From Burkholderiales bacterium (GTDB taxonomy: Bacteria > Pseudomonadota > Gammaproteobacteria > Burkholderiales > Burkholderiaceae_C), in the NCBI GenBank assembly GCA_031414735.1, contig JANNWL010000227.1, forward strand, positions 1,909-65,908: a stretch of 64,000 bases of DNA, written 5' to 3'. Below the pieces are notes generated by a model that saw nothing but the letters and a program-made list of their open reading frames with translations, was not told the origin of the DNA and searched no databases. Made by a program: the position numbers and the translations under genes. Position 1 is the first letter of the stretch. Every line of letters starts with the position of its first letter. This document shows, in pieces, positions 48,426 through 51,497 of this stretch.

Positions 48426-48525
48426 CGCCGCACGGAACCGCCCCGAATCGTCGGCCGCGGCCCTTGGCTTGAGCACCCGGCATTCCGCGCCCCATCTCGA
48501 AGACCGACCAACCCAGGAGACGTCA

Positions 48526-49434
48526 ATGGCCACCCAGCCCGCCAAGACCAGCCACCCGACCAAGCCCAGGGCCCGTTCCCTTCATATTGGCCTGAACCTC
48601 GTCAGCGCTGCGGCCTATGAAGGCTGGACTGGGCCACTGGCCGCCTGTGAATTTGATGCCAATGACATGGCCGCCATTGCCAAGTCCAGGGGCATGGCAT
48701 CGACGGTGCTGTTGACCAAGAAAGCCACACGCGCCGCTGTGCTGTCGAGCACGCGCGCAGCGGCTCGGGCCCTGAAATCGGGCGACTTTTTCTTCATGAG
48801 CTATTCGGGTCACGGCGGGCAGGTCGCCGACGCCAATGGCGACGAGCCGGACAAGAAGGACGAAACCTGGTGCCTGTACGACGGCCAGCTCATCGACGAC
48901 GAGCTGTACTTCGAACTCAGCCGCTTCGCCGCCGGCGTGCGCGTTCTGGTGTTGTCCGACAGTTGCCACAGCGGCAGCGTGACTCGCGAGGCGCCCCCGC
49001 CGCCGCCGCCGCCTGGCCAGCGCGTGAAGCTGATGCCTGACGCCGTCGCACGTCGGGTCTACACCAAGCACCAAGCGTTTTACGACAAGCTGCAAGCGGA
49101 CGTGGGCAAGGCAGCGGGAGCTGCCATCGTCGACCCCGACCATGCCCTGGCCCAGGTCGGCTCGGCCGCCCATGCGACGGCAGTGGTGGGCCGGTTCAGG
49201 CCCTCGGTGGTGTTGATCTCGGGCTGTCAGGACAACCAGACATCGATGGATGGCGATCACAACGGCGCCTTCACGGAGAGGCTTCTGAAGGTGTGGAACA
49301 ACGGCGGCTACATGGGCAGTTACCGCGCGTTCCACTCGCGCATCCGCGCCGCCATGCCGGCGACCCAGTCGCCAAACCTGTTCGTGCTGGGGCCGGCGGG
49401 CAGCTTCCTGGCGCAAACGCCGTTCACGGTCTGA
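48526..49434 (+). CDS. Caspase-family (peptidase C14, metacaspase-like) protein
   Basis: SLHIGLN, ACEFDA, YSGHGGQ (His), SDSCHSG (Cys), SGCQDNQTS; CAGGAG RBS. Confidence 0.92.
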
Positions 49435-49477: not shown

Positions 49478-50191
49478 CTACGGGTCGCGGCCGGGGCGAC
49501 TTTGCACGACCTGCCAGCGTCCGTCGACCCAGCGCGAAACCATCAAGGTGTACACACCCGCCCGTTGGTAGTCGCGCGCTTCGCGGCGAAGGGGCACGAG
49601 TTGCCCGTTCTGGAATGCGTGGTGATCGGTGCCGTAACGGGTGGCGGTGTCGCGCCACTCGCTGGTCAGTTCCCGGGTCGCCGCAACGGGCTGGGGTGCC
49701 CCGAGGTCGTCCAACGCGGTGCTGGACACAAACTTGCCGCTCGCGGGGTCGTAGAGCCAGTGCAGGCAGGGCAGGGTGGCGCCGGCAGAGCGGGACTCGA
49801 CGAGTCGGATATCGGCATAGCCGTCGAAGTTCATGTCGACCACATCGAATCCGGGTGCCTGCGCCGACCAGGGTGTCTGCGTGTCCAGGCCGGTGATGAT
49901 CTGTGCGGGTGCGGCGTCCGTGCCGCGTCGAATCTCGATGGACTTGACGAACAGCGTCCCTGCGGAATTGGGCGCCGTGTCGGCCCGAACAGTGAATTTC
50001 AACTCGGGCAGGTCAGGATGAATTCGCGCCGTGATGACGGCGGCGTAACCGGACACCGAAGCGGCCGGGGCCGATGCCGGCACCACCACGCCAGTTGCGC
50101 CAGTTGCGGCCGGTGGCGCTGCTGCCCGGTCGCACCCGGGCAGCCACAAACACAGCGCCAACAGGCCCGGGGCTGCGGCTCGGCCCGTCAC
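49478..50191 (-). CDS. Lipoprotein with an XAC2610-like (peptidoglycan-hydrolase inhibitor) motif
   Basis: Lipobox LPGC; DMNFDGYADIRL...WLYDPASGKF motif recalled from the XAC2610-related family. Confidence 0.7.
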   Translation of the reverse strand: MTGRAAAPGLLALCLWLPGCDRAAAPPAATGATGVVVPASAPAASVSGYAAVITARIHPDLPELKFTVRADTAPNSAGTLFVKSIEIRRGTDAAPAQIITGLDTQTPWSAQAPGFDVVDMNFDGYADIRLVESRSAGATLPCLHWLYDPASGKFVSSTALDDLGAPQPVAATRELTSEWRDTATRYGTDHHAFQNGQLVPLRREARDYQRAGVYTLMVSRWVDGRWQVVQSRPGRDP

Positions 50192-50196
50192 CGTGC

Positions 50197-50991
50197 TTAC
50201 AGGCCGAGGCCAAGCACGGCTTTGGCCCGACGCAAGTTCTGCATGCGGTCGTCCAGCCCATTGAAGCCGCCGTTGATGCGGCGGGTGACAGCCTTCACGT
50301 CGTCTTGCTCGGCCAGCTTGTCAACGCCACGGTCCTTCCAGAACCAGCAAGAAACATCCACCGCCACCAGCGGGTCGGTGGACAGCCGCTCCGGCTGCGC
50401 CAGATAGTCGACTCCGGTGTACTTGCTGTAGGCCGCGTAGTTGGCCCGGCCGGTGAGCTGGATCAGTCCGCGGCCCTTGAAACGCTTGCCGTCGCCGGGC
50501 TGGGTGTTGCCCAGGTCGGTGCGCCCTTCATAGGCTGCGCCGCTGGCGATCTCCTCGGAATACAGAAAGGACATCGACTCGTGCCCAAGCTGCGCGACGA
50601 AGTGCGCCGCCTGCAGCGCCGTCGTGATGCCGTACTTCGTCATGCCGGCCTTCAGCGGTTCGAAGTACATCTCGATGCGGTTGTTGGAGGCCAAGGGCAG
50701 CACGATGGCCAGCTTTTCCTTGGTGGCCCCTGGCCGCAAGCCGGCCAGCAAGGCTTGGATCGTCGCGTCCCCGGGGACGATCAGCTGATCGGACTCGGGC
50801 AGTTTCATCACGCGCGTCTCGAACAGCTGGATGCCCCGCAAGGTGTTCGGTCCAATGCGGCCGTCCGGGTTGAGTCGGGGCATCGTCGAGTCATCGATGC
50901 GGCCGAGATTCTCGTTCAACAAAATCTGTACGGCGGCCACGTCGGCCAAGTCGTTGCGGGCGCCACGCCCGACGCTGCTTGCAATGCACAT
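50197..50991 (-). CDS. GH19 family peptidoglycan hydrolase/chitinase with an N-terminal PG-binding-like domain
   Basis: HFVAQLGHES (catalytic Glu), FKGRGLIQLTGRANY, RRINGGFNGLDDR; N-terminal SVG..ARN..ADV..VQILLN. Confidence 0.9.
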   Translation of the reverse strand: MCIASSVGRGARNDLADVAAVQILLNENLGRIDDSTMPRLNPDGRIGPNTLRGIQLFETRVMKLPESDQLIVPGDATIQALLAGLRPGATKEKLAIVLPLASNNRIEMYFEPLKAGMTKYGITTALQAAHFVAQLGHESMSFLYSEEIASGAAYEGRTDLGNTQPGDGKRFKGRGLIQLTGRANYAAYSKYTGVDYLAQPERLSTDPLVAVDVSCWFWKDRGVDKLAEQDDVKAVTRRINGGFNGLDDRMQNLRRAKAVLGLGL

Positions 50992-51029
50992 GTTCAGGCT
51001 CCTTTGACGCGCGAGGCTGCGCTGGCGGG

Positions 51030-51058
51030 AAGTTAAGCGTTGCCTCCCGGTGTGTCAA
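51030..51058 (-). promoter_or_regulatory. Sigma-70 promoter of the GH19-lipoprotein operon
   Basis: Minus strand TTGACA-N17-TAACTT, followed by an AAAGGAG RBS. Confidence 0.7.
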
Positions 51059-51072
51059 CGCCAGCCTCACCC

Positions 51073-51369
51073 CTAGCTTATGGAGTCGTCAGTCGCGTTT
51101 GTTGCTGGCGTCGCGCCGTGACGGATGTCAAGCCTGCCAGCGCGCTGGATGACCGTGTGTTTTGCGACGCGACCGCGCACGCGCTTGCGCCACATCCTGA
51201 ACGAGCTGCCCTTCAGCTGCCGGCGCATCAATGCGATGACGGCGGGCTCGTTCAACCCGAACTGCGCCTTGATGACGTCGAAAGGCGTGCGATCGTCCCA
51301 CGCCATCTCGATGACCCGCGACAGGTCTGCGGTGGACAGCTTGTGGGGCTCTGCGCGAGGTGCTGTCAC
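51073..51369 (-). CDS. TIGR03643/DUF2805 family protein
   Basis: RVIEMAWDDRTPFDVI, LMRRQLKGSSFRMWRKRVRGRVAKH. Confidence 0.9.
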   Translation of the reverse strand: MTAPRAEPHKLSTADLSRVIEMAWDDRTPFDVIKAQFGLNEPAVIALMRRQLKGSSFRMWRKRVRGRVAKHTVIQRAGRLDIRHGATPATNATDDSIS

Positions 51370-51406: not shown

Positions 51407-51497
51407 TGGCGGAAGGGGCGGGATTCGAACCCGCGGAGGGCTGTTAACCCTCACATGCTTTCCAGGCATGCGACTTAAACCGCTCATCCACCCTTCC
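51407..51497 (-). tRNA. tRNA-Ser(GGA)
   Basis: 91-nt cloverleaf, anticodon arm CATGC-CTGGAAA-GCATG, long variable arm, GTTCGAATC, encoded CCA; TAGAAT -10 box at 51511-51516. Confidence 0.97.

Follow-up and report, generated by a model that had tools for sequence, protein, structure and literature searches.

A signal-less, endolysin-type GH19 enzyme encoded next to an XAC2610-family lipoprotein: a candidate muramidase/inhibitor cassette in a Burkholderiales genome

The window analysed here is a stretch of 64,000 nucleotides from contig JANNWL010000227.1 of a Burkholderiales bacterium (assembly GCA_031414735.1), and its subject is a pair of genes on the minus strand. Gene 1 (50197-50991) is an open reading frame (ORF) for a 264-residue hydrolase of muramidase type, with a peptidoglycan (PG)-binding-like domain, a domain of glycoside hydrolase family 19 (GH19; PF00182) and no signal peptide. 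Gene 2 (49478-50191) starts with GTG and encodes a 237-residue lipoprotein of the XAC2610 family (NF047539; 4QTQ), a putative GH19 inhibitor. Five bases (GCACG) separate the TAA stop of gene 1 from the GTG start of gene 2. An earlier note, made from the sequence alone, had read the arrangement as a two-gene operon with a 5-bp gap, and both ORFs were found as described. It had further proposed that the genes represent the same toxin/inhibitor pairing as XAC2609 and XAC2610 of Xanthomonas citri, without the export tag of that system. The source is a metagenome-assembled genome (MAG) from freshwater-sediment metagenomes (4.4 Mb in 587 contigs), a high-GC member of a family of betaproteobacterial type; it is 94.7% complete, with about 5% unassembled.

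The catalytic domain of gene 1 occupies residues 90-262 (50206-50724, minus strand). Its PF00182 match spans residues 134-223 (E 3.6e-10; score 40.5 bits, cut-off 25.5). The catalytic residues, Glu138 (50578-50580) and Glu147 (50551-50553), are invariant in 73 homologues with or without the partner gene, and so are the motifs around them. The AlphaFold2 model of the enzyme has a pLDDT of 86.7 and a pTM of 0.85. Residues 1-88 (50728-50991, minus strand) form a three-helix domain resembling PG_binding_1, assigned from sub-threshold Pfam matches (PG_binding_3, E 0.026; PG_binding_1, E 0.15, 12.7 bits versus 23) and from structure. The domain model superposes on the N-terminal domain of SleB (6tci; TMt 0.76, probability 0.95) and on 1lbu (probability 0.97) at Foldseek E values above 1; the probabilities for 6tci, 1lbu and 9h68 range from 0.87 to 0.97, and the proteins whose PG_binding_1 domains are matched are SleB, SleC and the Streptomyces DD-peptidase. 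Its invariant residues are D17, V18, Q22, L24, D43, G44, G47 and T50. The description of gene 1 as a PG-binding-like domain plus an intact GH19 is therefore a fair one by fold, and the GH19 part stands above its cut-off with both glutamates in place.

Gene 1 starts directly with a folded domain, cannot be extended upstream to an earlier start and shares its initiator Met with all its homologues, and on these grounds it carries no Sec, Tat or lipoprotein signal, as had been thought. Its C-terminus lies right after the GH19 domain and within 2-4 residues of the ends of all homologues. A Pfam scan of the protein finds GH19 alone above threshold and no XVIPCD. The earlier statements that it lacks a C-terminal extension and an XVIPCD both hold.

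The nearest relatives of gene 1, by sequence and by Foldseek, are GH19 endolysins: PWe2 (9ms7, the nearest sequence in the PDB, E 5.7e-40), SPN1S (4ok7), the chromosomal endolysin of P. aeruginosa (9eoi) and KTN6 gp46 (8p8e). The phrog_181 endolysin family matches residues 15-261 with E 3.9e-59. Gene 1 resembles these enzymes in its catalytic domain, Glu pair and fold, in the combination of a PG-binding-like module with GH19, and in the absence of a signal peptide. It differs from the phage enzymes in its setting, which has no holin, spanin or phage gene and includes a putative periplasmic inhibitor of a kind absent from lysis cassettes. The GH19-like type VI secretion system (T6SS) effector TseP (8xcl) is also among the Foldseek neighbours. 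We take gene 1 to be an endolysin-type GH19 enzyme with a PG-binding-like N-terminal domain, presumably specific for peptidoglycan and not for chitin.

PF00182 is named 'Chitinase class I', and homologues at JGI are labelled 'putative chitinase', so a true chitinase beside an unrelated lipoprotein gene had to be considered. Plant and bacterial chitinases match gene 1 far less well than endolysins do, by about 30 orders of magnitude. Moreover, an enzyme for an extracellular polymer would be expected to carry a secretion signal, and gene 1 has none; it has a peptidoglycan-binding-like domain and a conserved XAC2610-family partner. We set the chitinase reading aside on the strength of the endolysin PDB and phrog_181 matches, and consider it almost certainly wrong. 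A prophage origin of the pair was also rejected: the surroundings are free of phage genes, phage records contain essentially no such lipoprotein, and sequenced phages hold no copy of gene 1 above about 51% identity, full-length matches reaching only about 34%.

Gene 2 is truly related to XAC2610, the inhibitor of X. citri, and the evidence for this is solid. The search with an XAC2610-related family that the earlier note had proposed gave a match to NF047539 (XAC2610_fam) that scores 65 bits, the cut-off being 35, over residues 116-202 (67.5 bits when the genome was searched). A profile built from 31 homologues of gene 2 matches XAC2610 itself (PDB 4QTQ) over about 120 residues with E 2e-8. 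Direct phmmer comparison of gene 2 with the PDB gives nothing even at E 10, so that 4QTQ is reached in sequence by the family profile only, and no family of Pfam or PHROGs matches the lipoprotein. The all-beta domain is modelled confidently (pLDDT 84.4 for the AlphaFold2 model), and 4QTQ is its sole significant Foldseek match in the PDB (E 1.2e-8, probability 1.00, TMt 0.66, 211 columns).

The protein begins with a signal peptide (50132-50191, minus strand), recognised by inspection from its n-region and hydrophobic region, that ends in the lipobox LWLPG-C20. The lipobox Cys is aligned and kept across the homologues of gene 2 (L[AGST][GA]C). The residue at +2 after this Cys is Asp (C20-D21; 50129-50134, minus strand); the relatives have Arg, Lys, Gly or Gln there. 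Asp at +2 of a lipoprotein is an inner-membrane retention signal in E. coli. An Ala/Pro-rich disordered tether of about 27 residues follows (residues 21-47, 50051-50131, minus strand; pLDDT below 50 for residues 18-45), variable in length and sequence among homologues. A large beta domain, the XAC2610 fold, the length of 237 residues and the lack of a C-terminal transmembrane segment speak against reading the lipoprotein as a u-spanin or o-spanin, and that reading was dropped.

The two motifs first noticed in gene 2, DMNFDGYAD and WLYDP, are both present. The former (D119-D127; 49811-49837, minus strand) is a Ca-binding-loop motif that aligns to DINGDGHED, residues 151-159 of XAC2610 (PMC10933484). 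D119, N121, D123, G124, D127 and W145 are invariant in the gene 2 family. The loop E132-C142 (49766-49798, minus strand) is, in the alignment to 4QTQ, the positional equivalent of the inhibitory loop 165-173 of XAC2610. It is the least confident block of the globular domain (pLDDT 79). The consensus of the subfamily in this loop is PAG-PN(V/I)P(Y/F), and the window protein has SAG-ATLPC.

In X. citri, XAC2609 consists of a GH19 domain (residues 1-194), then a PG-binding domain, then an XVIPCD (PMC10933484). The mutation Y170A compromises inhibition by XAC2610, and Tyr170 is predicted to touch the catalytic Glu (PMC10933484). A fragment of XAC2609 that lacks the XVIPCD (residues 1-306) gets to the periplasm independently of the type IV secretion system (T4SS) and lyses cells that lack XAC2610, which chiefly counters this cis-intoxication (PMC10933484). 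The pair in the window is like this X-Tfe/X-Tfi system (XAC2609 being the X-Tfe and XAC2610 the X-Tfi) in that a signal-less enzyme with GH19 and PG-binding-like domains adjoins a lipoprotein that shares fold, family and Ca-loop with XAC2610. It is unlike it in that the enzyme has the reversed domain order, no XVIPCD and a GH19 domain closer to phage endolysins, in that Tyr170 is not kept, and in that VirB4 is found neither in the window genome nor in nine other carrier genomes. Gene 1, a GH19 of endolysin type whose domains stand in the opposite order, is therefore not an orthologue of XAC2609; the two are homologous at the level of the GH19 family only, and the published layout of XAC2609 sets them apart. 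The idea of the same toxin/inhibitor pairing thus stands for the inhibitor (NF047539, profile and fold match to 4QTQ) and falls for the toxin. The further idea, that the missing tag implies another delivery route, goes beyond what is required: the T4SS- and XVIPCD-independent cis-toxicity of XAC2609 is a precedent for a pair without a secretion system (PMC10933484), and the missing export tag of the window pair therefore needs no special explanation.

These observations lead to an account that we regard as probable, with no great confidence: the two genes would form a self-contained conflict cassette of muramidase and inhibitor, horizontally mobile and equipped with a promoter, in which the lipoprotein shields the periplasm of the producer, a form of cis-protection. 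The enzyme would be a GH19 peptidoglycan glycosidase made in the cytoplasm, with an N-terminal peptidoglycan-binding-like domain, and translation of gene 2 would be coupled to that of gene 1. The lipoprotein would hold a Ca-stabilised beta domain of XAC2610 fold in the periplasm on its Ala/Pro tether, and the loop after the Ca site would most likely be the part that binds in the active-site cleft of the GH19. Any GH19 that got into the producer's own periplasm would in this way be neutralised, as shown for XAC2609/XAC2610 (PMC10933484). Access of the enzyme to the periplasm, and its binding and inhibition by gene 2, are what we infer; the evidence for inhibition of the adjoining GH19 is adjacency and co-divergence, as described below. 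At the level of the family, the role of the enzyme appears to be that of an inter-bacterial or conflict weapon that is not tied to the X-T4SS, and is tied to the T6SS only in a minority of lineages, the window genome not being one of them. A conflict role is favoured over housekeeping remodelling of the wall because of the patchy, island-like distribution and of a relative linked to vgrG. In the window genome itself, the enzyme could be a weapon delivered by another route, a latent lysin or a stranded effector.

The family was followed in related loci (L labels), drawn from genomes and metagenomes, and in genomes (G labels). The 262-residue PG-binding-GH19 family is large and uniform in length (more than 7,800 matches), and the lipoprotein family is narrow in sequence space (42 matches). 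Within the same taxonomic family the cassette is rare and its distribution patchy, 6 of 301 sampled genomes having the full-length enzyme and three the pair. In a class-level sample, which did not include X. citri, XAC2610-family loci were found in 5 of 400 genomes. The 77 informative loci divide into 39 with an XAC2610-like gene directly downstream of the GH19 gene and 38 without one. Paired loci are found at GH19 identities as low as 48% and in both halves of the GH19 tree. Since several loci are near-duplicates, raw counts overstate independence, and the number of changes on the tree is the safer figure. In the maximum-likelihood tree paired enzymes stand to either side of the root and at least 10 changes are needed; pairing is thus ancestral, and the lipoprotein was lost repeatedly. 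Where the two proteins are paired they co-diverge (r 0.958; Mantel 0 of 2000), the lipoprotein evolving faster. Downstream pairing is not confined to the architecture of gene 1. At L116 (G531, positions 2-1869), from the same class, an XAC2610-like gene follows a gene for a protein of at least 439 residues with a GH19-like region in its C-terminal half, which is a third enzyme architecture for the pairing of GH19 with an XAC2610-like protein.

The cassette travels with its promoter. A promoter-like site was read upstream of gene 1 (51030-51058, minus strand), with -35 TTGACA at 51058-51053, a 17-nt spacer and -10 TAACTT at 51035-51030. Both hexamers and the spacing are kept 5' of the homologous genes in L034, L030, L035 and G122, where the spacer sequence varies. 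The G122 cassette, 80% identical to the window pair, occupies a different chromosomal locus, and conservation of the site there argues that the promoter moves with the genes. The promoter had been called near-consensus; its hexamers and spacing stand, but the -10 agrees with TATAAT at only three of six positions, the three most conserved, and a consensus scanner does not call the site. The Shine-Dalgarno sequence AAAGGAG (50999-51005, minus strand) was read 7 nt 5' of the GH19 ATG, and its GGAG is invariant in the upstream alignment. A tRNA-Ser(GGA) gene (51407-51497, minus strand; ARAGORN) serves as a landmark of the insertion site; L034 and L030 have the same tRNA gene, directly upstream of their GH19 genes.

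Several observations weigh against the proposed cassette with cis-protection. The distribution calls for at least 10 independent losses of the lipoprotein, and the enzyme-only copies keep all catalytic residues; a strict toxin/antidote relationship does not predict that about half of the GH19 copies should lack the lipoprotein in this state. The GH19 of L030, 84% identical to gene 1 and at the same tRNA-Ser locus, is without a lipoprotein gene, and the complete genomes G044 and G230 have the enzyme and no XAC2610-family gene anywhere. Many backgrounds can therefore dispense with the inhibitor. Conversely, several phyla have orphan XAC2610-like proteins that show this Ca-loop and the PAGPN loop but have no GH19 neighbour. 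The co-divergence of the pair could stem from shared inheritance and not from physical contact. In the putative inhibitory loop, Tyr170 of XAC2610 aligns to Gly137 of the conserved 'AG', and five positions past this equivalent the window protein has Cys142 where its own subfamily keeps Tyr or Phe; as the register of the loop is uncertain, another contact residue is possible. That enzyme-only copies have survived repeatedly argues for a conditional self-toxicity.

The enzyme-only loci and the orphans have contexts of their own. At L030 (5790-10162) the place of the lipoprotein gene is taken by unrelated genes, namely a methyltransferase, SBP_bac_3, a 206-residue ORF and NMT1_3, ahead of the conserved C14 gene. 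One enzyme-only GH19 clade (L033 5001-9782, L042 and L046) is fixed beside ThiF, which hints at a domesticated, inhibitor-free role in that lineage; at L033, where genes were called with Pfam, the tolB-pal-cpoB cluster comes after ThiF. The orphans (L010-L027 and L029) come from Saprospiraceae, cyanobacteria, Vulcanimicrobiota and Firmicutes MAGs (Lachnospiraceae, Selenomonadaceae, Sporomusa) and are secreted proteins or lipoproteins. They are possibly stand-alone lysozyme inhibitors.

The survey of the genome for secretion systems that the earlier note had called for found neither a T4SS nor a T6SS in the 94.7%-complete assembly. It holds no VirB4 (PF03135) and no TssC, and tblastn with the complete T6SS cluster of a relative plus VgrG returned generic Clp ATPases only, with no homologue of Hcp, TssB, TssF, TssG, TssK or VgrG. 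Among the nine other genomes that carry the GH19 gene, VirB4 is found in none and TssC in four. These results bear on the alternative that the pair is an orphan or stranded effector and immunity protein of a T6SS or another contact-dependent system, whose apparatus was lost or lies in the unassembled 5%. L067 (1830-5532) has a full-length vgrG (Phage_GPD, E 1.8e-103), situated 36 nt 5' of a homologous PG-binding-GH19 gene (52% identity) that has an XAC2610-like gene behind it. Such a vgrG-effector-immunity layout is canonical for the T6SS and shows that the GH19 family can serve as T6SS cargo. At L028, in a TssC-positive genome, a homologous pair lies beside a Tle1-like T6SS phospholipase. The structural neighbourhood of gene 1 includes TseP, GH19 effectors of the T6SS have been predicted in V. 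fischeri (PMC13694042), and the fragmentation of the MAG leaves room for a missed apparatus. The absence of all T6SS components searched for speaks against this alternative, however, as does G122, which is 99.3% complete and has the pair but neither VirB4 nor TssC. Furthermore, vgrG adjacency is seen at just one of about 60 loci with upstream sequence, and the T6SS-positive complete genomes G044 and G230 carry the GH19 gene without an immunity gene. For the window pair we therefore hold a stranded T6SS effector to be unlikely.

Compared with established T6SS pairs (Tse1/Tsi1, Tse3/Tsi3; TseP, 8xcl), the window pair is similar in its logic, a cytoplasmic wall hydrolase joined to a putative periplasmic, beta-rich inhibitor that would insert a loop, and has a vgrG-linked relative in L067. 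It is dissimilar in that its genome has no T6SS, its enzyme has no MIX, PAAR or adaptor features, and its immunity protein belongs to another family.

Neighbours of the cassette in metagenome loci were called with a simple ORF finder and a filter on GC at third codon positions (GC3). The lipoprotein gene is the sole consistently linked neighbour of the GH19 gene. The flanks, also at unrelated metagenome loci, are unusually rich in genes of defence or conflict type, with TIR at four loci, caspase-like C14 at five, and CHAT, patatin and EndoU at two each. TIR genes are found at L009, L037, L049 and L097, a CHAT gene at L038, patatin at L009 and L050, and EndoU at L091 and L113; an 881-residue TIR-NB-ARC-TPR protein is also among the neighbours. 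C14 genes near the cassette include L123 1909-2787 (minus strand), L040 4887-5798 (plus strand), L034 4548-5453 (minus strand) and L030 10187-10789 (minus strand).

A gene for a C14 caspase-like protease (48469-49434, plus strand; PF00656, E 3.2e-21) also converges on the pair in the window. It is given here as context, its linkage to the pair being unproven. A signal-less C14 adjoins the cassette at two chromosomal loci, convergently at the tRNA-Ser locus (window, L034 and L030) and co-directionally at the locus of G122 and L040. The C14 proteins of G122 and L040 are 85% identical to each other and 46% identical to that of the window over the p20 region; L040 is without the lipoprotein.

Such neighbours raise the alternative of a domesticated endolysin for regulated self-lysis or abortive infection, which would stay in the cytoplasm until a membrane breach or a trigger, possibly C14, with the inhibitor guarding against leakage. 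Both sequence and fold mark the enzyme as endolysin-type; it lacks an export signal and has the chromosomal P. aeruginosa endolysin 9eoi as a structural neighbour, and genes for C14 or CHAT proteases, TIR and patatin are found repeatedly next to the cassette, at two different loci. As the earlier note had remarked, however, no holin or phage gene is found nearby (nor a spanin gene; none within about 5 kb, where the neighbours are housekeeping or conflict genes), and no PADLOC model matches either the GH19 protein or the lipoprotein. The C14 gene of the window is convergent and thus not co-transcribed, and caspase adjacency occurs within one GH19 clade, where it may be inherited synteny. Regulated self-lysis seems to us an unlikely role.

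A more specific form of this thought is that the PG-binding-GH19 protein may enter the periplasm without signal, holin or secretion machine, that the lipoprotein is a tethered brake, and that the pair is a 'latent lysin' module of conflict islands from which, in some lineages, C14 or CHAT proteases release the enzyme by cutting the Ala/Pro tether or the inhibitor, with altruistic lysis as the outcome. We consider this quite improbable. If it were true, the latent lysin would be a wall-directed counterpart of the protease-activated bacterial gasdermins.

The combination of a signal-less wall enzyme and a periplasmic, membrane-anchored partner, with no dedicated secretion system, would also fit a bacteriocin-like muramidase that is released by lysis, taken up by neighbours and matched by a periplasmic immunity protein (compare pesticin/Pim or colicin M/Cmi), and the cassette is mobile and patchy. 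Yet gene 1 has no receptor-binding or translocation domain and no TonB box, its folded PG-binding-like module begins at residue 1, there is no lysis gene, and enzyme-only loci are common. A bacteriocin-like function is thus very improbable, and the cassette with cis-protection, as set out above, is the reading that we retain.

The putative inhibitor can also be compared with PliI, PliC/MliC, PliG and Ivy. These are stand-alone periplasmic or lipid-anchored inhibitors of glycosidases, a description that the orphan XAC2610-like genes fit. PliI shares the loop-insertion topology of XAC2610 (PMC10933484). The window inhibitor differs from this group in being presumably co-transcribed with its likely target, and in that this target is a GH19 enzyme and not a lysozyme of the c, g or i type. 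A search for RNA-seq data that would bear on co-transcription found DNA metagenome runs only. The kind of system and its logic have been described before, and in this respect the result is useful but incremental. The cassette speaks for X-Tfi-like proteins as inhibitors of GH19 enzymes in general, older than the T4SS or independent of it. It also offers a natural 'XVIPCD-less' system for the question posed by Oka et al. (2024; PMC10933484), how a signal-less muramidase enters the periplasm, and the enzyme-only loci and orphan inhibitors provide built-in comparative controls.

XAC2610-type proteins are known as immunity proteins of the bacteria-killing T4SS of Xanthomonadales. Here the inhibitor fold is joined to a GH19 lysin of another build, and the mobile cassette that unites them, which brings its promoter along, is widespread in genomes that have no T4SS and for the most part no T6SS.

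A few features of the surroundings remain to be listed. A DUF2805/TIGR03643 gene (51073-51369, minus strand) lies between the tRNA-Ser(GGA) and the GH19 gene in the window only; in L034 and L030 the tRNA leads directly to the GH19 gene, over about 100-125 bp. The other neighbours in the window are DUF2237, a Band_7/NfeD pair and a decarboxylase on one side and glgC/glgA on the other. Eleven bases 5' of the -35 hexamer stands the motif TAGGGG (about 51064-51069, minus strand), which is kept in L034, L030 and L035 and appears as AGGGG in G122.

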